Shown here piece after piece: positions 3,754-33,017 of a stretch of DNA of 46,506 nucleotides (position 1 is the stretch's first letter; each line of letters opens with the position of its first letter). Position numbers and translations under genes: made by a program. The notes under the pieces were generated by a model. It was not told where the DNA came from. It made no database searches and saw nothing but the letters and a program-made list of their open reading frames with translations. Source of the stretch: Candidatus Nomurabacteria bacterium (lineage in GTDB: Bacteria > Patescibacteriota > Saccharimonadia > Saccharimonadales > Saccharimonadaceae); the NCBI GenBank assembly GCA_031261545.1, contig JAISJL010000016.1:1-46506 (forward strand), read 5' to 3'.

Positions 3754-4437
3754 ATGAATAAAATCCCAAAACTCCATATATTTCTCATCATTTACATTTT
3801 TCTCTGCGCCCTAGTCTTTCTCATCACCGGCAAAACCCTCTCAATCTGGATGATTTGGAACGTTTTTTTGGCATGGCTTCCGCTTTTCTTTTCCCATTTC
3901 ATCACCAAATACAAAAACCAAAAGCTCACAAAAATCTTTTTCGGCGTCTGCTTCCTCTTTTTCCTCCCCAACGCTTTTTACGTCATGACCGACCTCATCC
4001 ACACCAACACCTACAACTTCTACAACGCTAATTATGAAATCTCCGCCACCTACTACACCGACAACTTCGACTCTTGGCTCATGCTCTTCCTCATCTTCAT
4101 CGGCGTCATCCTGTCTTGGACTTTCGGCCTCAAAGCCATCTACAAACTCCAAACTCTCCTTCCGCAAAACCAAATCCAAAACAAAAAACAAAACCCAACC
4201 ACAAATCCAAAATCACGCACAATAATTCTTTACGCAATCCTATCTTTTTTGTGCGCCCTCGGCATCTGGATCGGCCGCTTCCTCCGCTTCAATTCTTGGG
4301 ACATTTTTAACCCCCTAAACCTATTTCCCGCAATACTCCAAAACATCAACTTCTTCACCTTTCAATTCATTTCTGTTTTTGCCTTAATGATTTTCACCAG
4401 CCTGATAATTTTCCAACCAAAAATCAAAACCCCATAA
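3754..4437 (+). CDS. Multi-pass integral membrane protein (possibly DUF1361-type)
   Basis: MNKIPKLHIFLIIYIFLCALVFLI... Several hydrophobic helices and a RFLRFNSWDIF motif. The start was moved to 3754 to clear obg. Confidence 0.7.
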   Translation: MNKIPKLHIFLIIYIFLCALVFLITGKTLSIWMIWNVFLAWLPLFFSHFITKYKNQKLTKIFFGVCFLFFLPNAFYVMTDLIHTNTYNFYNANYEISATYYTDNFDSWLMLFLIFIGVILSWTFGLKAIYKLQTLLPQNQIQNKKQNPTTNPKSRTIILYAILSFLCALGIWIGRFLRFNSWDIFNPLNLFPAILQNINFFTFQFISVFALMIFTSLIIFQPKIKTP

Positions 4438-4441
4438 AAAC

Positions 4442-7400
4442 CTAGGATAATCCACAAATCGCCTCAAAATCCAAACTAGCCTCCAATTCACAAAGTTTCT
4501 CTTTAGAAAGATAGCCCTCCTTGATTTTACCGTTTTTATCTTGACCACCAGTGGGCGGATTGGCCTTGAAATAACCGCGTACGGCGATATTGAAAGCGGC
4601 CTGGAGATCGGCGTCAGAGATATGACGGCAGTCAACATATGGGCAGACGTAGATACCGATGTTGCCACGGTCTTTGCCGGCACCAAAGGTTTTGGAGAGT
4701 TCTTGCCAGTTTTTTTCTCGTTTTACTATTTCTATACCTAGACCGTCTTCGTTGGGACGCATGGCTTTATATATCATACCTTTGAGGTCTTTGCCTTTGA
4801 CGGTGTCTCCGGATTTATTGTGTGGAGCGAAGAGGCGGACATAGCGACCACTTTTCAGCTTCGTTTTTAATAGTCCATCTTTATAATCTTCTAATTGATA
4901 ATCGCCATTCTCGTCTAGGTCTAGGCTCGCCCAAGTTTTACATTTTGTGCAGAATTGCGAAGTGCCAGCAGCGGTGGTTTCTTTGGCATAGTTCAACTTT
5001 TCGCCTGGCAATGGTCGAGTTTTTGCCCCTGCCTTGTAGCCTCCCCAACTCGATTTGATTTTTTCATCATTATCGCCGCCACCTTTCAACACATCGGCTT
5101 GCTTGATACTATCATAGATCTTTGCAACTTTCTTACCACCGATTTCAAAACCGCTCACTTCATACTCAAAACTGAGTGTGGCGTTTTTGGATAATGCTAA
5201 ACTTTCAAGTTGATTTCTGTAACTACCGATTAAGCTTTCACGCAGACGAGCAACTTTTGTGTCCATCGCTGTAAAGGTCTGTCGAACTTGGCTGGCTCGC
5301 CAGCTTTTGACTTCGTTTTTTAAGACCTGCTGTTGATTATCGGCGATGAAATCGCTGTCTAATTGTTTAACCTGGTTATCCTCAACCTTAATTAAGCTCC
5401 ATGCTAAACCATATTCACCAATGTCCACGCCGATGAAACGGTTTTTGATGTTTTTGATGTTTTTGGCGTCAAACTCTGGGTTCTCTGGTGGTAATAGCTC
5501 GAATGGTTGCGAAACAAAAATGCGATGGTCTTTTTCGGAAGTTTTCGGATTATCACCAGACCAATCAATATCAACTATCTTCTCTGCGATGACAAATGCG
5601 CCTGACAGTTTCAATTTTGTCTTTTTCTGACTGTGCTTGCCGAAAAACCAACCCAAAAACTGTATCTGGTATCTTGACGAAGCGACTTTGAGCGCGGGAT
5701 ATTTCGCAGTTGTTTTCACAATATCACTTTCTGGACTGTCGGTATTGTCTTTGGCTTTACAGATTTTTGTTAGCGCGACTTTTTTATCATCATCTAGCTC
5801 ATAATTCTTGAACACATAAAAATAACGTTGAACTTCTTTATTTCGCAATTCCTCCGGCTTCTCACCTTTCTTGTGTTTCATATATTGCTTGTCAGGTTTT
5901 TGCAAACCGGCACCAAGCGTAACTTGATTGCCACCCGCAAAAACGTTGTTCTTATTGCCATCCGAACCAGTAGATTGTAGTTGATAACGCACGACAACTT
6001 GTTTTTTACTCAAAATCGCATTGTAGCCAGAAAGTTGCGAAAAAATATAGTTGTTCTCAATCTGGTCTTTTTTATCGGCGTCCGTCATCACGACCGCTAC
6101 AACTGTGCGAGCCAACTGAATAGTGTCTCTGAATAAATTGAGGTTGTTAAAATCTTTCTGGTACTCGCCAAATAATTCTCTAATTCTTGAGAGTTCGACT
6201 AATCTTTCTGCTGTCAGAGTTTTGCTCCATTCAATACACTTAAGCCGATCATCCCGCTCTCTACCACTTAAATAAAATCGCTCGGTATCTTTTTTAATAA
6301 AATTAACGCCAATTTCCGTAGCGATGCTCTCTAAAATATCTTTAACTTGTGTATTGCCATCATAACCGTCTTGCCCAAATCGCTCATAAAATCTCGCCAG
6401 AGTATTTATCGTGCGGCTTCCTTTTTCGTTCTTTTTCAGCCCGTTGGCTTCGTCTTGGTATTTATCTAAGTCGATTGCTTTATCTAAAATATCGCCGACT
6501 TTTTGGATCTCAGTTTTTATCAAAGATTTCAGATTGTAAGTTTGCTCAAAAAGTAGGCGTTTACTTTCGCCATAGAATAACGGTGCAGATTGAATATGCT
6601 TGCTCAAAATCTTCTGCCAGCCCGCTTCGTTGCTCTCGCCGTCTTCGGACTTTGTTCCACCAAGTTTATCATCTAAACTCCCGACTTCGTCGCCAACTTT
6701 TACACCCTTTTTCTTTTTGGTAGCTACGACTTTATTTTGCTGGTTGTGCTCATTCAATTTACTCCTGAGTTCTGCCAACAAACTTTCTAATTTCTCTGTA
6801 AACTCACGGTCGGCGATTTTTTCCACCCAATACTGCACAGTTCTCGCTTCTTCGGTTTTGGTTTTCTTTTTCTCAACCGTCCATGTATTCACAAAAATCT
6901 TGGGCTGCTCGGTTTTGGCGACATAATCCTTAATGTATTCTTTAGTTTCGGTTATTAACTGTTTTTCACTGTCAGTGTTTGTTTGTAATTTTAGAACCTC
7001 ATTAATCTTGTCTAACATTCTATCTAGCTCAATCATCTGTTCAGGTGCTTTTTTGAGCTTCTCTAAACGATTAGAATACCAGCTTTCTAACTTCCCACCG
7101 AAATCGTTTGCGTAATCACCCCACACCTTAACAATTTGCGGTCTCTCTGGTAGAACGTCAGCGATTTTCATTAATTCATCTAATCTGTTTTTTACAGTAT
7201 CCGTATCATAGCTGTCGCCAAAATAACTTTTGCACGCTTTAAGATAATCACGAAAGTCACCTTTTTTGACGAACAAGAACAAATCATTGAGAACGCGAGG
7301 AATATATCCTTGATTTAACGAGTAAAGAGCTATGCGATTACTTGTTTTATCGTCTTTCTTGTTTTCGTCAATCTTGTATTTATCGTTATAGCGCCTAATG

Positions 7401-8128
7401 ATTTCGTCTAACAGCTTCGTTGTGTCTTTTCCGTCAATAATCTCGAAATCTGGGTCGCAATAAAAGGCCGCATTCTTTTGCGACTCTTTTCCAGTATCCT
7501 CATCGACCGCTCTAATTCTGGGGTAATTATCGTTGTTTGGTTTTTGTAACCCGAACAGCCCGAATTTGTCTTTTTTGTTTTCTCGATACTTTTTAATTAT
7601 TTCTTTGACCTTTTCGTCGTCTTTATGTTTCTCGTCACTCAACAAATTCGCTATTTGGTTTTTCAATTTGTCGTCAGTGGTTTTCGCTGTTCCGCTTTTT
7701 ACAAACTCACACCATTTATCTTTTTTAAGTTTGTCCCGTAAATTATCGTCTATCGTGTCAAAAAGATTTGGCAAAAGTTGCTCGGAAAAATCATTTGGAG
7801 CGTGCGACTGTTTAGAAAAAATAAAACCTAAACTGAGTGCCTTGAGCCAAAACCTGAGGAATGAATATTCGCGCTCGCCATTCGCGATTTGCTCGTTGGT
7901 TTTTTCTGCTCGCCAAGTGAGATAATCGTTGAGATTAATATTGCCGTAGAGCCATTTGTTGTCGCTAGCCACGGCCTCGGCGATCTTATCACGCAAACCG
8001 GTAATGCCGCTTGGGTCAGCTAGCTCGTATTTGATGGAGCGCATTGAACCAGTTCCCCCAGAATACGCAATGCGCTCGTCGTGCAGACGATAGCCGCGTT
8101 TGCCTTGCGATCGTTTCTGAAACTTCAT
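4442..8128 (-). CDS. cas12d: Type V CRISPR effector nuclease, Cas12d (CasY)-like
   Basis: A ~1230 aa ORF flanking the CRISPR array and cas1. Residues are numbered from the ORF-track TTG at 8182.
- RuvC-I: RFIGVDIGEYGLAW (Asp920, codon 5423-5425).
- RuvC-II: LSFEYEVSGFEIGG (Glu1006).
- RuvC-III: SDADLQAAFNIAVRGY (Asp1190/1192).
- Zinc ribbon: CxxC (C1078/C1081) and CxxxxC (C1180/C1185) between RuvC-II and RuvC-III.
- N-terminal GYRLHDERIAYSGG..MRSIKYEL and SRYQIQFL match my memory of CasY proteins.
- The start is ambiguous: ATG 8128 (chosen), TTG 8146 (preceded by GAGGAGAAGG), or TTG 8182. Confidence 0.88.
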   Translation of the reverse strand: MKFQKRSQGKRGYRLHDERIAYSGGTGSMRSIKYELADPSGITGLRDKIAEAVASDNKWLYGNINLNDYLTWRAEKTNEQIANGEREYSFLRFWLKALSLGFIFSKQSHAPNDFSEQLLPNLFDTIDDNLRDKLKKDKWCEFVKSGTAKTTDDKLKNQIANLLSDEKHKDDEKVKEIIKKYRENKKDKFGLFGLQKPNNDNYPRIRAVDEDTGKESQKNAAFYCDPDFEIIDGKDTTKLLDEIIRRYNDKYKIDENKKDDKTSNRIALYSLNQGYIPRVLNDLFLFVKKGDFRDYLKACKSYFGDSYDTDTVKNRLDELMKIADVLPERPQIVKVWGDYANDFGGKLESWYSNRLEKLKKAPEQMIELDRMLDKINEVLKLQTNTDSEKQLITETKEYIKDYVAKTEQPKIFVNTWTVEKKKTKTEEARTVQYWVEKIADREFTEKLESLLAELRSKLNEHNQQNKVVATKKKKGVKVGDEVGSLDDKLGGTKSEDGESNEAGWQKILSKHIQSAPLFYGESKRLLFEQTYNLKSLIKTEIQKVGDILDKAIDLDKYQDEANGLKKNEKGSRTINTLARFYERFGQDGYDGNTQVKDILESIATEIGVNFIKKDTERFYLSGRERDDRLKCIEWSKTLTAERLVELSRIRELFGEYQKDFNNLNLFRDTIQLARTVVAVVMTDADKKDQIENNYIFSQLSGYNAILSKKQVVVRYQLQSTGSDGNKNNVFAGGNQVTLGAGLQKPDKQYMKHKKGEKPEELRNKEVQRYFYVFKNYELDDDKKVALTKICKAKDNTDSPESDIVKTTAKYPALKVASSRYQIQFLGWFFGKHSQKKTKLKLSGAFVIAEKIVDIDWSGDNPKTSEKDHRIFVSQPFELLPPENPEFDAKNIKNIKNRFIGVDIGEYGLAWSLIKVEDNQVKQLDSDFIADNQQQVLKNEVKSWRASQVRQTFTAMDTKVARLRESLIGSYRNQLESLALSKNATLSFEYEVSGFEIGGKKVAKIYDSIKQADVLKGGGDNDEKIKSSWGGYKAGAKTRPLPGEKLNYAKETTAAGTSQFCTKCKTWASLDLDENGDYQLEDYKDGLLKTKLKSGRYVRLFAPHNKSGDTVKGKDLKGMIYKAMRPNEDGLGIEIVKREKNWQELSKTFGAGKDRGNIGIYVCPYVDCRHISDADLQAAFNIAVRGYFKANPPTGGQDKNGKIKEGYLSKEKLCELEASLDFEAICGLS

Positions 8129-8172
8129 ATACTGCTTTTTCTTCAAAATGTCCTTCTCCTCTTGACATATAA

Positions 8173-8197
8173 TTAATTGCAATCTGTTATTTTAGAG
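8173..8197. repeat. Left arm of the inverted repeat bracketing the non-coding gap and the CRISPR array
   Basis: aatctgttattttagag (8181-8197) is the exact reverse complement of ctctaaaataacagatt (8522-8538). ttaattgcaa (8173-8182) pairs with ttgcaattaa (8545-8554). Read on the minus strand it contains TAAAAT (8189-8194), 6 nt before TTG 8182. Confidence 0.85.
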
Positions 8198-8358
8198 ACC
8201 ATGAGATAAAGGCTAAGATACTTTCTAGTGAATTCACAAACACTATCATATCTGGAAACATCATGGATTTACTTGAGAAGAAAAGAATAAGCAAAAATTT
8301 TCGGCAACTTCGCTACGCTCGCTGCCGCTTCCAATAAATTGGAACCGCAACGAAGCCC
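8187..8358 (-). ncRNA. Candidate scoutRNA/tracr-like non-coding region between cas12d and the array
   Basis: - Plus strand 8193-8213 (TAGAG-ACCAT-GAGATAAAGGC) is an inverted, degenerate copy of the 3' half of the repeat (TAGAGGAGAAAAGGC in minus sense).
- A minus-strand transcript would therefore carry an anti-repeat.
- Hairpins: ttccaa-taaa-ttggaa (8329-8344) and cggcagc...gttgccg in minus sense (8302-8327), the latter followed by AAAATTTTT.
- There is no ORF. Strand and ends are unverified. Confidence 0.3.
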
Positions 8359-8359
8359 T

Positions 8360-8516
8360 TGCCTTTTCTCCTCTATTTTACGAGGTATTAGTTTGTGTTT
8401 ATATGCCTTTTCTCCTCTATTTTACGAGGTAAAGTTATCCCTATCATGCCTTTTCTCCTCTATTTTACGAGGCCTGTTATCCCACTTGTATGCCTTTTCT
8501 CCTCTATTTTACGAGG
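8360..8516 (-). CRISPR. CRISPR array with 4 identical 26-nt repeats and 3 spacers of 18, 17 and 18 nt
   Basis: - Repeats tgccttttctcctctattttacgagg lie at 8360-8385, 8404-8429, 8447-8472 and 8491-8516.
- Spacers lie at 8386-8403, 8430-8446 and 8473-8490.
- The minus-sense repeat is CCTCGTAAAATAGAGGAGAAAAGGCA, with an internal CCTC/GAGG stem.
- Orientation is inferred from the minus-strand promoter at 8564-8592 and from the type V convention.
- The repeat boundary could shift by 1 nt, because 3 of 4 copies are preceded by 'a'. Confidence 0.93.
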
Positions 8517-8521
8517 AGTTC

Positions 8522-8554
8522 CTCTAAAATAACAGATTATTAACTTGCAATTAA
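8522..8554. repeat. Right arm of the array-bracketing inverted repeat
   Basis: See the left arm. It starts 5 nt after the last repeat. cctctaaaata (8521-8531) can also pair with tattttacgagg (8505-8516) of the adjacent repeat, giving 11 bp with one bulge. Confidence 0.85.
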
Positions 8555-8563
8555 CTACCTACT

Positions 8564-8592
8564 ATATTATCATAAAATACCAGTAATTGCAA
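8564..8592 (-). promoter_or_regulatory. Sigma70-like promoter in the A/T-rich leader, pointing into the CRISPR array
   Basis: Minus sense reads TTGCAA-17 nt-TAATAT. The predicted start is about 40 nt upstream of the first repeat. Confidence 0.45.
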
Positions 8593-8647
8593 CCTTTTTC
8601 ATATTTTGTGTCATATATACATGAAATTTGCTTAAAAATGAAACATT

Positions 8648-8656
8648 TGTTAAAAT
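8648..8656 (+). promoter_or_regulatory. Extended -10 (TGTTAAAAT), 9 nt upstream of the cas1 ATG
   Basis: tttGTTAAAATgattatatcATG. Confidence 0.35.
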
Positions 8657-8665
8657 GATTATATC

Positions 8666-9727
8666 ATGAAATGCAATGTCAAAACCCAAAATCATTCTAA
8701 TCGCGTGCCAATGTGGCTGCCTTACTTACACTCCATTCGAGAAACCAAAAAAGGCATCTTCGAGTTCGTTTTCAATGGTGGCACAGAAATTGTCAACCTA
8801 AACGAAATCTCTTCAATCATGATATATGGCGAAACTGATACGAAATTAGATCAAAAGATCTTGGATAAGATCACACGCAAAGGCATTCCCATAATCATCC
8901 ATCGCCGCAACATGTCGCAGCCAATTTACATCACTGGCGGCTTACGTCCAGACAAAGATGACACCATCACGGAACAACTCGTCAAACGTCAACAATCACG
9001 AACTTCCACACACATCGCTCGTCAACTTTTAATTGCAAAAATGCACTCAATGTCATATTTAATCCCATCAGCCAAAGTTCCACAATTCGCAAACATCAAA
9101 ACCTTACGCAACATTGAAGCCACGCATGCACACAAATATTGGCGTGCCTATTTCACCAAACTTAATCATCCCGAATGGATACGCCGCGACAAAAACCCAG
9201 CCAGCGAAGCACTGGATGGAGCCAGCAAATTTATATCGGGCATAATTTTGCGCTGGATAACCTACCATCATTTAAGTCCATACCATGGTTTTCTTCATGA
9301 GCCGACCGACTATCCAAGTTTAGTCTATGATTTAATGGAACCAACGCGTGGCATCTTTGAGTCAATTTTGCTTCAAGTTTTTATCAACACTAACCAAAAA
9401 GATTGGTTAGTTAATTCCATTTCCGAATTAAAAATGGCCCTCGATGAGCAAATCTACACATCGCTCACGCGTCAAATTGTCACGCGCCAAGAACTTTTAC
9501 ACGGCACAGTTTTATCGTTAAAATATTATCTGCTCGGACGCCAACGCAAATTCCTAATTCCTCTACCAGGCTCACCAAATGGCGGTCGTCCACCAAAAGT
9601 CGAGTTCCTACTTTACGGTCGCCATGCTGGCAAAACGAATTTTTGGGAAAAAGCGGAAATCGCTGCCAACAATGACAAATGGCTCAAACAAAAACCACGA
9701 CATTTTGATCACGATCACCCATTCTAA
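8666..9727 (+). CDS. cas1: CRISPR-associated endonuclease Cas1
   Basis: Cas1 catalytic signature: NIEATHAHKYWRAYF (Glu) and GFLHEPTDYPSLVYDLMEPTRG (His, Asp/Glu). It is adjacent to the array. A later Met (MWLPYL) is a possible alternative start. Confidence 0.9.
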   Translation: MKCNVKTQNHSNRVPMWLPYLHSIRETKKGIFEFVFNGGTEIVNLNEISSIMIYGETDTKLDQKILDKITRKGIPIIIHRRNMSQPIYITGGLRPDKDDTITEQLVKRQQSRTSTHIARQLLIAKMHSMSYLIPSAKVPQFANIKTLRNIEATHAHKYWRAYFTKLNHPEWIRRDKNPASEALDGASKFISGIILRWITYHHLSPYHGFLHEPTDYPSLVYDLMEPTRGIFESILLQVFINTNQKDWLVNSISELKMALDEQIYTSLTRQIVTRQELLHGTVLSLKYYLLGRQRKFLIPLPGSPNGGRPPKVEFLLYGRHAGKTNFWEKAEIAANNDKWLKQKPRHFDHDHPF

Positions 9728-10807: not shown

Positions 10808-11347
10808 TTACGCCTCCACCTCATAATAATACGATTGCTCGACTCCTTTCATAAACACTTCCCGATCGTCAATCTTATCTGTCAGTGCTGCAGAAAGCAA
10901 AGTCCGCAGTTCCAAATCATTCACAGGGCTACGCTCCATAGAACTCAAATAACCCGCTTTATTAACCAACGACCAGTCCACACATTTTCGCAAACTTCTT
11001 TTCAATATCAAATCCAACCAAATCCGCATGCTCCGTCCATTGCCCTCCAAAAACGGATGCGCAATATTCATCTCGACATACTTTACAATAATTTCCTCAA
11101 AAGCATTTTCCGGCATCTCCTCAATTTTCGCCAACGTATCACCTAGATATAAACTATTCGCAAATCGAAAATTACCCTTCGCGATATTTTGCGTCCGAAT
11201 CTCACCCGCAAAGTCATATAGCCCACCAAACAAATATTTATGTATTTGCCGTAAACCCACAACCGTCCCAACCTCAAAGCCACTCAACTCCGCGCTGTCA
11301 AATAACGCTTTCGCCCGCCCCTCGCTAACTTTATCAACATCGCTCAT
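10808..11347 (-). CDS. Fic/DOC family protein (putative AMPylase)
   Basis: Canonical Fic motif [12 protein letters not shown]. Confidence 0.88.
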
Positions 11348-11418: not shown

Positions 11419-12384
11419 CTAGTTATTCAAACAAACCACACCGCCACCCTCTAATGCATATTGCACGGCCAATTTCGATGTTCTACCCGACGTAATAATT
11501 TCAGAGCCATCGCAGGCATACCCACGCGAAACATAAACCTTATGATCACCACTCCAACGGCTCGGCGTCCAACCGTCGCTCGCAGACTTATTTTCAACTA
11601 TCACATACGCCACGCCATCAACATCGTCCCAAATATCACCGCCCGCCAACATATAACTTTTCACAAGCTTACCCCAGTCGTCTGGCAAGTTATTTCTATT
11701 ATTTGCCTGATACATTACAATCGCACTCACTAACCTTGCCATATCATTTTTCCTTTGCGTATTTCTCTGCGATATTCGCAATTCTTCCGTGTTTCCAATT
11801 TCCTCATCAACTACCTGTTCAATCTTTTGCGCGTCGGCAAAAGTTGAGATAACTTTAGCGCTCAACATACAAACATCAAGCAGCGCTACAGTCAAAAGCA
11901 CTAGATGAGGAATGGCGGTATTCACTACCCTAGTTTCCAAAATCGCTTTATTTTTATTCTTAAATATGGCCAACAAAATAATCGGCAACAATACACACGC
12001 CGATAAGACAATAGCAAACACATATATATTTACACGATGAACAAAAAATTGAAAAACTGCGATAACTCCCGCAGCAAGAATCGAACCACTACACAATATC
12101 AAAACACTACCCGGTTTCTTATATTTCTTCGCAAACAAAATCGCCACGATACTCACCAACGAACAAAGTATTAACGCAAAAATCGAATATCTTAACACCA
12201 CAGGAAACAAAAGCATACTCACTATCCAACTAAACGGAGCCGACATAATACCCACCACCAACATCACTGGACCAAGCGCAACACACACTATTGCGGTAAT
12301 TATAAAAACAAAAAGCGCAACCACAAAAGGCCACTTTTTCGTTCTGCTTTCAACATACCCACTTATATTTTCATTCTGCATCAC
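11419..12384 (-). CDS. Hypothetical polytopic membrane protein with a C-terminal extracytoplasmic, pilin-like domain
   Basis: About 6 hydrophobic helices followed by a soluble C-terminus (ARLVSAIVMYQANNRNNLPDDW...). A strong SD, AAGGAGG, precedes the ATG. Confidence 0.7.
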   Translation of the reverse strand: MMQNENISGYVESRTKKWPFVVALFVFIITAIVCVALGPVMLVVGIMSAPFSWIVSMLLFPVVLRYSIFALILCSLVSIVAILFAKKYKKPGSVLILCSGSILAAGVIAVFQFFVHRVNIYVFAIVLSACVLLPIILLAIFKNKNKAILETRVVNTAIPHLVLLTVALLDVCMLSAKVISTFADAQKIEQVVDEEIGNTEELRISQRNTQRKNDMARLVSAIVMYQANNRNNLPDDWGKLVKSYMLAGGDIWDDVDGVAYVIVENKSASDGWTPSRWSGDHKVYVSRGYACDGSEIITSGRTSKLAVQYALEGGGVVCLNN

Positions 12385-29577: not shown

Positions 29578-31079
29578 GCGTTTGATCCAGACGGTTTATT
29601 ATCATTTCTTGCGTCAATTAGAATGATGTTGCTTGTCGTGTCTAATTCTAATCTGTCCAAGATGTCCCTAGCACGTCCAAAATCATTATCGGAAAAACAT
29701 GTGATAACACAAATTTTATGTGGTTTTTTTGATGATATGTCGGCAGCGGCATATACATCAAGCTGTTTACTTAGATTCGATTCCAGTTTAGTATTCGATG
29801 CAATCTTGAACTCCACAATTGTCTTGTCGTTAGACCCATAAGACACGGCAAAATCAACTGGGCCACGACCATGGTTAGTTTCTGGATTTACATCAAATTT
29901 GCTTTTGCTGGCAGACCAAATGAGTTTATAGAGCCTTTGCAGACCATTCTCGCCTTGGACTCTCTTGCCATCTTTGTCATAAAACATTCTATAGAGATCA
30001 TTATTTTCAATGTTATCTTTCAATATATCAATTTTCGACATTGCTTCATCATAACTGTTATTAAAATCTCCAAAAGTATAGAATAACGTATCTTGATTAA
30101 GCACCCCAATAGCGTGTTTTGCGTTATCGGAATAAATATCTTCCACAAACGCCACTTCGTCTAAGCTGTGTTCAAAAACCAAATAGCCATCATCTTCGCG
30201 ACTCTTTATATAAGCATCTATCAAAATTGGATATTTCTTCATTACCTTGCTATACAGTTGTTGCAAATCCTCTTTTGACGGCTCTTCTTCACTATTTGGC
30301 ATTAACGAAGATATGTACTCATTAATCTCATCTCGAAGTTGTTCGTTGGATATCCTATCCGGTAATTCTATAAATTGGTCGTACAACCCCTTGTTATTTA
30401 TCCACAAATCACTCTTGGTTAAAATATCTCTTGGCGTCAAGAGCACATAGTCGTTAAGTTCACTATGAAACGGCAATGTAAATACTTTTGGCTTCCATCT
30501 GCGAGTATTGTAATCGAAAACAGCCTTGTCTACTGGCACCTCCCGCAAAAGCGCACTGTCGATGTTTTTGATAGCGAATTGTTGGGTGTATTCCGCAAGG
30601 AAGATTTTTATTAGATTCGTAGTAAAATCGCTAACTTTGTCGTTACCAATTCCGTCGCCCAAAAGACAGAGCTTTTCAAGGTGTATATCAATACCCAAAT
30701 CGTTATCTTTTGGCGGTATAATATTAGATATGTTTTTAATAAGCGCATCAGCAAACTGCCTGCCAAGACCTAACCCTGCGTTACCATTTAATGAAAACCC
30801 AAGCCAAGTTTGTTTCACTTCGTCGAAGTGTAAAAGTCTATCAAACTCCCCTTTATCTCCTACGAACTGTCTACTCTGTAAAAATCTCAGATATTTCGTG
30901 ATCTCGGTATGTAATACTTGATATTCTTCCTTCTCGCTTTCAAATATTAGGAATGGGTCTACGAAAAGGGGCGTATCGTTGATCAAAGAAATATCTATTG
31001 CGCCGTGTTCCTTTATGGTGTCTCTACTAACATTGAAATAATCTGAAAAAAAGACGTTTCCTATGCGCACATCATCCAT
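29574..31079 (-). CDS. Uncharacterised ~500 aa protein inserted between mod and res, with a C-terminal PD-(D/E)xK-like motif
   Basis: GRGPVDFAVSYGSNDKTIVEFKIAS (D418...E432-x-K434, nt ~29806-29860). I recognise no other domain. The start ATG at 31079 is 1 nt after the mod stop, and the stop overlaps the res start. Confidence 0.65.
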   Translation of the reverse strand: MDDVRIGNVFFSDYFNVSRDTIKEHGAIDISLINDTPLFVDPFLIFESEKEEYQVLHTEITKYLRFLQSRQFVGDKGEFDRLLHFDEVKQTWLGFSLNGNAGLGLGRQFADALIKNISNIIPPKDNDLGIDIHLEKLCLLGDGIGNDKVSDFTTNLIKIFLAEYTQQFAIKNIDSALLREVPVDKAVFDYNTRRWKPKVFTLPFHSELNDYVLLTPRDILTKSDLWINNKGLYDQFIELPDRISNEQLRDEINEYISSLMPNSEEEPSKEDLQQLYSKVMKKYPILIDAYIKSREDDGYLVFEHSLDEVAFVEDIYSDNAKHAIGVLNQDTLFYTFGDFNNSYDEAMSKIDILKDNIENNDLYRMFYDKDGKRVQGENGLQRLYKLIWSASKSKFDVNPETNHGRGPVDFAVSYGSNDKTIVEFKIASNTKLESNLSKQLDVYAAADISSKKPHKICVITCFSDNDFGRARDILDRLELDTTSNIILIDARNDNKPSGSNA

Positions 31080-31080
31080 C

Positions 31081-32961
31081 TTACACCACCTCCACATCAA
31101 TCTCATTCTGCTCGGCTTGGAGGAGGATGTTGGCTTTTAATTGGCTGTCGTTTGCGAAACTAGTGTCCAACAAAATCACTTTTGACGGTTTCTCCGTGAT
31201 TATTTTGGCGAAGAGGTCATTGGTGATTTTTTCGGCTAGGCAGATTATTAGATCATTGTCGGAAACTTTATAAAGTTTTTCGGGCGAAGGTTCAATTTCG
31301 CTCATTGGACTGATGCCGTTTTTGAGGAGGAGTTCGGTTAGCAAACTTTCCTCTGTTGCGTCGGCGATAAGTGGCTCAATTTGGTCGAGCATTGCGGTGC
31401 GGAGTTGACCTTCATCGTCATAATGTTCCCGCCATTTTTTGAAATTGCTATCGGAAACTTTATAAACTTTGAAGCCAGTGTCGCCTTTGGCAATTTTCGT
31501 GCCAGCGCGACGGATGCGTTCTTTGGAAATGTCAGCGATGTTTTTGTATCCAGCCTTGAAGGCTTCGGATTTTTCGTCGGTTTCTTCGGGCAGTTGGACG
31601 AGAATCCATTTGCGATTGCCACCGTCCTCGGCGTTTAATTCCATCACGGCTTGGGCGGTTGTGCCTGAGCCAGCGAAGAAGTCTACAACTATCTCACTAT
31701 CTGCAACATCCGCCATTCTAATAAAATGTTTGACAAGATTGACGGGCTTTGGATAATCAAATACTTTGCCATCAAATAGTTGCTTTATCGCATCAGCACC
31801 CGAGCCAGCGCCAATATCATCAATCCAGGTTGTGAATTTCTTTGTATCTTCCTCGCCCTCTTTTGGCTCATACATTTTTTCGTATGCTATCCACTCGCCG
31901 TCCTTATCCTTTTGAAACTCGACATTACCCGCCTCAATCTCATAAGTCATTCTCGCCAGCGCCCACCGCCAGCGCCCATCCCTTGAGGTCTGGGCGCTGT
32001 CGGCACCGTCAGCACCCAATTTTGGGTAAAAATCGTTTCCGTCTGGGTCTTTGATTGGATAATAAAGATTTGGACGGTCTTCGCGGCGGCTGTTCGCTCC
32101 CCATTTTCTTAACAACTGTGTTTTATAGTGCCTGTTTTTATCTTTATCAAATTTCGGATAACTATCGCCTTCTTTAACCTCTTCACCCGCGTTAAACTCG
32201 TCAAGACTTTTTGCATAACAAAGGATATATTCGTGTATGACAGCGTAATACCTACTATCTTGTCTGCCGCCACGACCTTTCCAATTTATCTGCCCAATAA
32301 AATTCTCCGCTCCAAAAATCTCATCCATAATCAACCGCAAATTCGCGACTTCGTTGTCGTCGATGCTGACGAAAATTACACCGTCGGGACGGAGGAAATT
32401 GCGGGCGAGGAAGAGGCGCGGATACATCATATTTAGCCAGTTGCTGTGGAAGTAGCCGTTGTCTTTGGAATTTTTGCGGAGGCCGTCGGTGCGAACGACG
32501 AAACCTTCGTCGTCAATCTCGCCCGTTTCCATCTGGTAATCACGGCGATTTTCGGCGAACTTGTCATTATAAACGAAATCGTTGCCAGTGTTGTAGGGTG
32601 GGTCGATGTAGATCATTTTGACTTTGCCGTAATAGGATTTGTGGAGGATTTTGAGGGCTTCAAGGTTGTCGCCTTCGATAAAGAGGTTTTTGGTCGTGTC
32701 GGGGTTGACGGATTCTTCGGGGGCGGGTTTGAGGGTTTTTGTTGTGCGTTCCTGAATGGCGCGGAAGACGTCAGCTTTGCCTTTCCAGCTGAGGCCGTAG
32801 CGTTTTCCCAAATCAACTTCCTTACCGAGCGTAGCCTGCAATTTGTTCCAGTCGATTTTATCTTCAGCGAAGACTTCGGGGAAAACTTTATAAAGTTTTT
32901 CAATCTGTCCGCTTGCAATATCATCACTGTATCCATCAAGTTTTACTACTTTGTCATCCAT
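31081..32961 (-). CDS. mod: Type III DNA methyltransferase, Mod subunit (N6-adenine, beta-class)
   Basis: Motif IV IYIDPPYNTGNDF precedes motif I VVDFFAGSGTTAQA. The start is set at ATG 32961. Confidence 0.88.
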   Translation of the reverse strand: MDDKVVKLDGYSDDIASGQIEKLYKVFPEVFAEDKIDWNKLQATLGKEVDLGKRYGLSWKGKADVFRAIQERTTKTLKPAPEESVNPDTTKNLFIEGDNLEALKILHKSYYGKVKMIYIDPPYNTGNDFVYNDKFAENRRDYQMETGEIDDEGFVVRTDGLRKNSKDNGYFHSNWLNMMYPRLFLARNFLRPDGVIFVSIDDNEVANLRLIMDEIFGAENFIGQINWKGRGGRQDSRYYAVIHEYILCYAKSLDEFNAGEEVKEGDSYPKFDKDKNRHYKTQLLRKWGANSRREDRPNLYYPIKDPDGNDFYPKLGADGADSAQTSRDGRWRWALARMTYEIEAGNVEFQKDKDGEWIAYEKMYEPKEGEEDTKKFTTWIDDIGAGSGADAIKQLFDGKVFDYPKPVNLVKHFIRMADVADSEIVVDFFAGSGTTAQAVMELNAEDGGNRKWILVQLPEETDEKSEAFKAGYKNIADISKERIRRAGTKIAKGDTGFKVYKVSDSNFKKWREHYDDEGQLRTAMLDQIEPLIADATEESLLTELLLKNGISPMSEIEPSPEKLYKVSDNDLIICLAEKITNDLFAKIITEKPSKVILLDTSFANDSQLKANILLQAEQNEIDVEVV

Positions 32962-32967
32962 GCCCCA

Positions 32968-32976
32968 ATTATACCA
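32968..32976 (-). promoter_or_regulatory. Extended -10 (TGGTATAAT), 6 nt from the mod ATG (leaderless)
   Basis: Minus sense reads TTTGTGGTATAATTGGGGCATGGATGAC. Confidence 0.5.
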
Positions 32977-33017
32977 CAAAATCCCTCCAAAACAAAGTGG
33001 CAAAGTCTTCTATGTCA

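Follow-up and report, generated by a model that had tools for sequence, protein, structure and literature searches.

Type V-D CRISPR (short palindromic repeats that are clustered and regularly interspaced) systems, whose effector is Cas12d (CasY), are described as having 17-19-nt spacers, 26-nt repeats, cas1 as the sole adaptation gene, and a requirement for a short-complementarity untranslated RNA (scoutRNA) (10.1101/2023.12.12.571249). Types V-C and V-D are both without cas2, and Cas1 of type V-C alone, as a tetramer, integrates short spacers (PMC6977970, citing Wright et al. 2019). The protospacer adjacent motif (PAM) of type V-D is 5'-TA or 5'-TG (PMC7889808; PMC6509639), and the maturation of its precursor CRISPR RNA (pre-crRNA) is listed as unknown or unconfirmed (PMC7889808). 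We analyzed 46,506 nt of a Candidatus Nomurabacteria genome (contig JAISJL010000016.1 of assembly GCA_031261545.1, positions 1 to 46,506; hereafter the window), in which a small repeat array lies between cas1 and cas12d. It is very probably the CRISPR array that belongs to a complete type V-D (Cas12d/CasY) system of two proteins, carried by a genome of the Patescibacteria, the candidate phyla radiation (CPR). Its short spacers are a published hallmark of type V-D and no novelty. Whether the array is also embedded in the scoutRNA by a long helix is the second subject of this analysis.

The array consists of four exact copies of a 26-nt repeat, TGCCTTTTCTCCTCTATTTTACGAGG on the plus strand (8360-8385, 8404-8429, 8447-8472, and 8491-8516), with periods of 44, 43, and 44 nt and spacers of 18 nt (8386-8403), 17 nt (8430-8446), and 18 nt (8473-8490). 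These repeat starts, periods, and spacer lengths are exactly those given in a preliminary description of the array made from the sequence alone. The 25-nt core of the repeat has four occurrences in the window and none elsewhere in it at up to three mismatches, and 0/100 shuffles matched. Identity between units falls away beyond 26-27 nt, and the inter-repeat sequences are unrelated; because similarity stops at the repeat edges, longer repeats with degenerate ends and spacers of normal length, the alternative that the preliminary description had allowed for, are excluded. An 'a' before TGCC on the plus strand is common to three of the four units. It is not part of the repeat, since the repeat of the family is 25 nt long and ends in ...AAGGC in the RNA sense (see below). 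The same comparison overturns the suggestion that the spacers might be 1 nt shorter (16-17 nt): with the 25-nt repeat they are 19, 18, and 19 nt long, each beginning with A. The window spacers thus measure 17-19 nt under either definition of the repeat.

For comparison, we fetched 37 further Cas12d loci (L001-L037), and 28 arrays were parsed from these loci and the window. All 28 arrays have a 25-nt repeat with ...AAGGC at its end in the cas12d sense, and the window repeat matches this family consensus (a 5' mini-hairpin and the ...AAGGC 3' end). The most frequent spacer length is 18 nt (170 of 275 spacers), followed by 19 nt (87), 17 nt (10), 20 nt (5), and 16 nt (3), with 18-19 nt accounting for 257/275 spacers (93%). 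Together with the full-length Cas12d encoded by the adjoining open reading frame (ORF), this length distribution bears out the earlier claim that such spacers are a peculiarity of CasY/Cas12d arrays. The claim attached to it, that a Cas1-only integrase must use a different molecular ruler, stands insofar as cas1 is indeed alone, but a different ruler is nothing new, having been established already in type V-C, the sister subtype. Among 272 unique spacers, the first nucleotide to follow ...AAGGC was A in 50% and T in 29% (background A: 29%), a bias that may be related to integration or to the PAM. All three window spacers begin with AU.

One locus of the comparison set (L012; JAISHL010000025, Candidatus Nomurabacteria, 193-349) has a repeat identical to that of the window (26/26 nt). 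Its leader is also nearly identical to that of the window, yet its Cas12d is only ~31% identical. This points either to much stronger conservation of the RNA modules than of the effector or to an exchange of these modules from locus to locus. Arrays of one to four spacers are common among relatives. Four closely related loci with identical flanks (L059-L062), from different samples, carry unrelated spacers numbering 1, 4, 4, and at least 3, and two loci with the same Cas12d (L003 and L004) have different spacer sets; small arrays of the Cas12d family are therefore actively turned over. The window array was called tiny in the preliminary description, and it does have only three spacers, but small arrays are normal among Cas12d relatives.

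The product of the gene next to the array matched the Cas12d equivalog NF033951 with 880 bits (cutoff 250) over model positions 1-1179 of 1180, and two PADLOC Cas12d models with 584 and 551 bits. RuvC residues D902, E990, and D1174 occupy positions that do not vary in an alignment of 16 proteins, and the D-to-E spacing is the same as that of D827/E913 in KbCas12d. Its closest Cas12d relatives reach 54% identity (5.8 billion clusters searched), and a word-based search returned 30 homologues, some of them named Cas12d by NCBI. The window protein is a new, divergent member of the Cas12d family. It has no match in Pfam; PDB holds no Cas12d and gave only a weak match to the RuvC region of Cas12c2 (7v93, E = 0.003). 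An identity as Cas12c (type V-C) was rejected, as NF033950 gave only 38.8 bits (cutoff 250) and matched the RuvC region alone. An alternative start codon of cas12d is the TTG at 8146, which is in frame and has a ribosome-binding site nearer to it.

The cas1 gene is divergent from the array and cas12d. The PADLOC match of its product spans residues 27-292, and the catalytic motifs NIEATHA, GFLHEPT, and DLMEPT are present and align to a solved Cas1 structure. Neither cas2 nor cas4 was found at the locus, which has no unassigned space for either (the cas2 scan covered the first 16 kb of the window), its only non-coding gap being 8129-8665.

As published, the crRNA of KbCas12d consists of cuccgaaaguaucggggauaaaggc and then an 18-nt guide. 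The window array therefore reads on the minus strand, with CCUCGUAAAAUAGAGGAGAAAAGGC preceding the guide. In relatives, the degenerate terminal repeat is always on the cas12d side, which places the leader on the cas1 side, beyond 8517, in agreement with the array growth that the preliminary description had expected at the 8517 end. The newest spacer is expected at 8473-8490. The better of the candidate promoters is TTGACA-16-AATCAT (8682-8655), with 10/12 consensus matches; a weaker one, TTGCAA-17-TAATAT (8592-8564), has 8/12 matches and lies under the scan threshold. Neither match is in itself a sign of function.

In all loci with the layout of the window, array and cas12d are separated by a stretch that includes a conserved element, composed of a closing stem of 4-8 bp that varies by locus, single-stranded (G)UUUCC, a hairpin, and single-stranded UUAGCCUU. 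The closing stems covary across 20 loci (checked per sequence), and the order of the modules is the same as in KbCas12d scoutRNA1, which has been used in experiments. When trained on 17 other loci and not on the window, a covariance model had its top match in the window at 8200-8265 on the minus strand (20.5 bits, E = 0.0057). This candidate scoutRNA gene (8199-8266) does not appear in the preliminary description. RNAalifold on a MAFFT alignment of the scout core gave the inner hairpin only, because the 5' ends were misaligned, and the only Rfam match in the entire window was a tRNA, with no scoutRNA or CRISPR repeat family. The GCCUU:AAGGC pairing of the window could be longer, 6 + 4 bp interrupted by a 1-nt bulge (GCCUUU-A-UCUC versus GAGA-AAAGGC).

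The contigs with the published KbCas12d scoutRNA (L056, 10201-10000 on the minus strand, and L057-L062) place it between the array and cas12d; the text of the preprint has the scoutRNA 'upstream of the array' (10.1101/2023.12.12.571249). In the sister locus of that clade (L059-L062), the last repeat runs directly into the closing stem of the scout core. Seven other loci (L018, L019, L021, L028, L029, L032, and L037), in which the array lies downstream of cas12d, have a scoutRNA upstream of cas12d with a 5' hairpin, the loop of which is GUUCCUAACU, a 10-nt anti-repeat. In the window, the array and the scoutRNA are separated by a hairpin-rich element (8291-8358), which has similar counterparts at this place in L002, L009, L011, and L012. 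A terminator scan gave no calls, this element included; it may serve in processing or be a partial terminator. If it is a partial terminator, the scoutRNA would have a separate promoter; immediately upstream of the scout core there is a -10-like TAAATC.

The arms of an inverted repeat lie on the two sides of the array, the leader (8522-8555) being the reverse complement of the 3' tail of the scoutRNA (8170-8197), with 17/17 nt perfect and a second block of 13 nt. The duplex of these two arms has a predicted energy of -33.8 kcal/mol (z = -6.7), and the helix is within the minimum-free-energy fold of a 426-nt transcript (z = -6.6). Leader:tail complementarity is present in 15/16 loci of the window layout (alignment z-scores of 5-19 versus shuffles), with RNA duplex energies of -28 to -53 kcal/mol. 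It was seen in L001, L002, L004-L006, L008-L010, L012, L014, L022, L025, and L026, and also in L033 and L059-L061. When leaders were combined with cognate and non-cognate tails, a locus's own tail was the best partner of its leader in 13/17 loci; this matrix and the duplex energies replaced a formal pair count on the concatenated alignment, which was dropped because of register shifts. The arm sequences are entirely different between clades and complementary within each locus, with compensatory change in relatives. In 12/16 loci, 0-1 nt separate the scout closing stem from the start of the tail arm, and across loci the leader arm stops 2-7 nt short of repeat 1.

The pairing was predicted beforehand for the CasY.1 clade, and the prediction held. 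The CasY.1 contigs (L056-L058) end in the array, and the leader was therefore read from the sister locus with the identical repeat (leader ATACCAATAAAATCGG, tail CCGATTTTATTGGTAT). Loci with the array downstream of cas12d have a scoutRNA with an uninterrupted, covarying basal stem of 10-12 bp and no tail arm; in the same loci the -10 box of the array (TATACT) abuts repeat 1, leaving essentially no leader RNA. The simplest reading of the window sequence is that, with the leader paired to the scoutRNA tail, the array would be nested in an extended basal stem of the scoutRNA, the pre-crRNA leader forming the 5' strand. A fuller version of this idea, in which a co-evolving leader:tail helix of 17-45 bp embeds the array in the scoutRNA, forms a natural split single-guide RNA (sgRNA), and acts as a signal for processing or assembly, we consider possible, though short of probable. 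An engineered sgRNA with the 3' end of the scoutRNA joined to the 5' end of the repeat outperforms the separate RNAs (10.1101/2023.12.12.571249). No mention of leader:tail pairing was found in the accessible literature, a body that did not include the primary scoutRNA paper (Harrington 2020).

By homology with KbCas12d/CasY.1 and CasY15, a promoter on the cas1 side would drive minus-strand transcription of the array, and in each crRNA a 5' handle derived from the repeat would precede an 18-19-nt guide. The GCCUU of the scoutRNA would pair with the AAGGC of the repeat and so license Cas12d to bind and cut DNA, presumably, as in the described systems, beside a 5'-TA or 5'-TG PAM. New spacers would enter at the leader-proximal repeat (the 8516 end) through Cas1 without Cas2; the length of ~18 bp may be set by how large the Cas1 oligomer is, as demonstrated for V-C Cas1 only. 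The transcribed leader, judging from its complementarity, would base-pair with the 3' tail of the scoutRNA and would thereby keep the newest repeat-spacer unit and the scout core side by side, in the same topology as the engineered sgRNA.

The preliminary description had proposed searching for the targets of the three spacers, with attention to a flanking PAM; we searched the viral contigs of IMG/VR. Exact matches numbered 7 for spacer 8473-8490, 9 for spacer 8430-8446, and 2 for the third spacer; only two, eight, and two of them, respectively, are independent, as 6/7 matches of the first come from one related contig family. That six-contig family has a GG flank, and a TA flank was present in 3/9 matches of spacer 8430-8446. 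Given the chance-level counts and no consistent 5' flank, these matches were rejected as targets. The spacers have no self matches in the 46.5-kb window at up to three mismatches. The two leader-proximal spacers (8473-8490 and 8430-8446) have the 8-mer GGGATAAC in common in the RNA sense, with a roughly estimated chance probability of 0.01-0.02, and spacer 8473-8490 has AUAACAG (7 nt) in common with the scoutRNA tail arm.

Several points weigh against a functional V-D locus with a leader:tail helix. IMG/VR yielded no credible protospacers, the counts being close to the estimated chance for 17-18-mers, and no consistent 5' flank or PAM was seen among the viral matches. A decaying or non-immune role is conceivable for an array of three spacers, two of which share 8 nt. 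The Cas1 ruler is extrapolated from type V-C. The evidence for the helix consists of sequence co-variation only, and the excess of G:U-compatible mismatches on the sense strand (19, versus 9 on the antisense strand) is a weak test, and the loci are phylogenetically related. A terminator-like hairpin stands between the array and the scoutRNA and could separate them into two transcripts, though pairing in trans would still work.

Four other explanations were weighed. One is that the feature is not a CRISPR array, being a chance or structural tandem repeat or a set of longer repeats with normal spacers. Nothing but the small copy number speaks for this, and it is scarcely conceivable given four exact 26-mers at a period of 43-44 nt that 0/100 shuffles reproduced, unrelated sequence between them, a repeat shared at 26/26 nt with the Cas12d locus L012, and the conserved order cas1, leader, array, scoutRNA, cas12d. 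A fossil or repurposed mini-array, in which acquisition has ended and the spacers are regulatory (cr-like, CreR, tracr-L) or idle, would account for there being only three spacers, for the lack of a protospacer above chance, and for the 8-mer GGGATAAC in two spacers and the 7 nt that one shares with the scoutRNA tail arm. We regard it as very improbable, because all 4/4 repeats are identical, cas12d and cas1 are intact with their catalytic residues kept, no self or promoter target exists within the window at up to three mismatches, and the spacer differences in L059-L062 and L003/L004 show turnover of small arrays in the family. It is somewhat easier to imagine, and still decidedly unlikely, that the assembly has collapsed longer or heterogeneous arrays of the population into the one path seen in the contig. 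CRISPR arrays are frequent points of breakage or collapse in short-read assembly, and CasY.1 contigs L056-L058 terminate within their arrays or at the array edge, but the window contig crosses the array with unique sequence on both sides and arrays of 1-4 spacers are common in relatives. Collapse is in any case compatible with a type V-D array and would alter only the spacer count.

The remaining explanation accepts the array and concerns its flanks, taking the inverted repeat to act as DNA in the form of operator sites, integrase sites, or the relic of an inverted duplication. Both arms adjoin promoter or 5'-UTR (untranslated region) sequence, the outer arm holds the palindromic, -35-like TTGCAA, and the G:U strand asymmetry (19 versus 9) favors RNA only weakly. 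Even so, a role at the DNA level seems unlikely to us. The arms change wholly between clades yet stay complementary, whereas a site for a conserved protein would be expected to keep its sequence; a neutral relic would have decayed at protein identities of 25-50%. The tail arm abuts the scoutRNA closing stem (0-1 nt in 12/16 loci), and loci with a remote array have an equivalent long stem within the scoutRNA itself. We therefore retain the type V-D array with high confidence, and the helix of leader and scoutRNA tail as a tentative proposal. The features of the locus are collected in Table 1.

Table 1. Features of the type V-D locus in the window, with coordinates and strand.
Feature	Position	Strand	Basis or description
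cas12d (casY), 1228 aa, effector nuclease	4442..8128	-	NCBIfam NF033951 and PADLOC
scoutRNA 3' tail arm (putative) CUCUAAAAUAACAGAUUGCAAUUAAUUA	8170..8197	-	starts 0-1 nt after closing stem
scoutRNA core	8199..8266	-	candidate; closing stem CCAUGA/UCAUGG, single-stranded GUUUCC, internal hairpin, anti-repeat
Anti-repeat UUAGCCUUU, single-stranded	8208-8216	-	carries conserved GCCUU
GC-rich hairpins then AAAAUUUUU, between array and scoutRNA	8291..8358	-	predicted fold
CRISPR array, 4 repeats and 3 spacers	8360..8516	-	RNA-sense repeat CCUCGUAAAAUAGAGGAGAAAAGGC(A)
Leader arm (putative) GUUAAUUGCAAGUUAAUAAUCUGUUAUUUUAGAG	8522..8555	-	ends 5 nt before repeat 1
Candidate array promoters, upstream of leader arm	8564..8682	-	consensus scan and reading by eye
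cas1, 353 aa, sole adaptation gene	8666..9727	+	Pfam PF01867, 66.8 bits

Genes that directly border the locus are obg and a DUF1361 gene at one end and ychF and fic at the other; its neighbors also include Sua5, a sigma-70-like gene, FtsJ, and EF-P. The best named relatives of the Obg protein come from Saccharibacteria, Nomurabacteria, and other Patescibacteria (61-65% identity), which identifies the host as a CPR bacterium. The gene adjoining ychF (10808-11347, minus strand) encodes a Fic protein adenylyltransferase (NmFic equivalog, 286 bits), and the 321-aa ORF after fic (11419-12384, minus strand) has no family match. The plus strand of the window has a very strong excess of C over G (GC skew of -0.3 to -0.49), independent of gene orientation. 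The skew is weaker at the CRISPR locus (4400-9000; -0.12 to -0.25), where GC content is 0.39 versus 0.45-0.50 in the flanks, and it is ~0 at 31-33 kb (31000-33000); the two low-skew segments suggest more recent acquisition or inversion. In the sister locus of CasY.1 (L059, 3167-4672; L060, 1910-3415), a 501-aa protein with PDDEXK_1 and RNase_H_2 domains is encoded beside cas1. It could be an accessory adaptation nuclease, and nothing comparable is present in the window.

The short spacers of the window add nothing new to what is known of type V-D, and the ruler of a Cas1-only system has already been addressed experimentally in type V-C. What the locus offers is a divergent, apparently intact Cas12d system in which the promoter side, leader, array orientation, and scoutRNA have all been mapped, so that direct reconstitution is possible. 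The comparison of 28 arrays contributes a clean distribution of spacer lengths and the A/T bias at the first position. If true, the leader:tail helix would provide a testable hypothesis for the assembly or processing of V-D pre-crRNA and scoutRNA, would supply the missing signal for that step, and suggests a rationale for the design of sgRNAs.

Among known systems, one likeness is to the duplexes of trans-activating CRISPR RNA (tracrRNA) and pre-crRNA in types II, V-B, and V-E, where a helper RNA next to the array pairs with the array transcript, as it would in the window. The stems at which RNase III processes the transcripts of rRNA operons resemble the proposed arrangement of the window in another respect, a flanking long-range helix enclosing functional RNAs. 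The window differs from tracrRNA systems in that the long duplex would involve the leader, once per transcript, with only 5-10 nt paired per repeat. Type V-C (Cas12c) is likewise a two-protein, scoutRNA-dependent system without cas2, and its RuvC region is distantly related to that of the window protein (38.8 bits with the Cas12c model; E = 0.003 with 7v93). The 2019 work of Wright et al. is said to report short repeats and spacers for type V-C as well. The ruler experiments were done with a V-C Cas1 and not with a V-D Cas1.

Candidatus Vogelbacteria loci PCYK01000006 (L003/L004) and PCSX01000016 (L033) share the layout of the window, in the order cas1, leader, array, scoutRNA, cas12d, and have 25-nt repeats, 17-19-nt spacers, and a leader:tail inverted repeat of 28-45 nt. 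We take them to carry the published CasY.3 and CasY.2 repeats. The Cas12d of L003/L004 (P0004) is 49% identical to that of the window, and the sequences of repeat, leader, and tail are entirely different.

The KbCas12d/CasY.1 locus (Candidatus Katanobacteria; Burstein 2017, Harrington 2020, and 10.1101/2023.12.12.571249) resembles the window in its 25-26-nt repeats ending in AUAAAGGC, its 17-18-nt spacers, its lone cas1, and a Cas12d of ~1,100-1,200 aa, although the effector is too distant from that of the window to be among the 31 word-based matches. The scout cores agree module by module (closing stem, UUUCC, hairpin, UUAGCCUU, closing stem), the CasY.1 contig L056 has the same order of array, degenerate repeat, scoutRNA, and cas12d, and the CasY.1 sister locus has the same leader:tail complementarity. 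The two differ in the junction of array and scoutRNA. In the CasY.1 clade the last repeat runs directly into the scout core and the tail is ~25 nt long, whereas in the window the array and the scout core are separated by a gap of 93 nt, 68 nt of which are the hairpin-rich element at 8291-8358. They differ also in the pairing of the anti-repeat, which may extend to 10 bp in the window versus 5 bp in KbCas12d.

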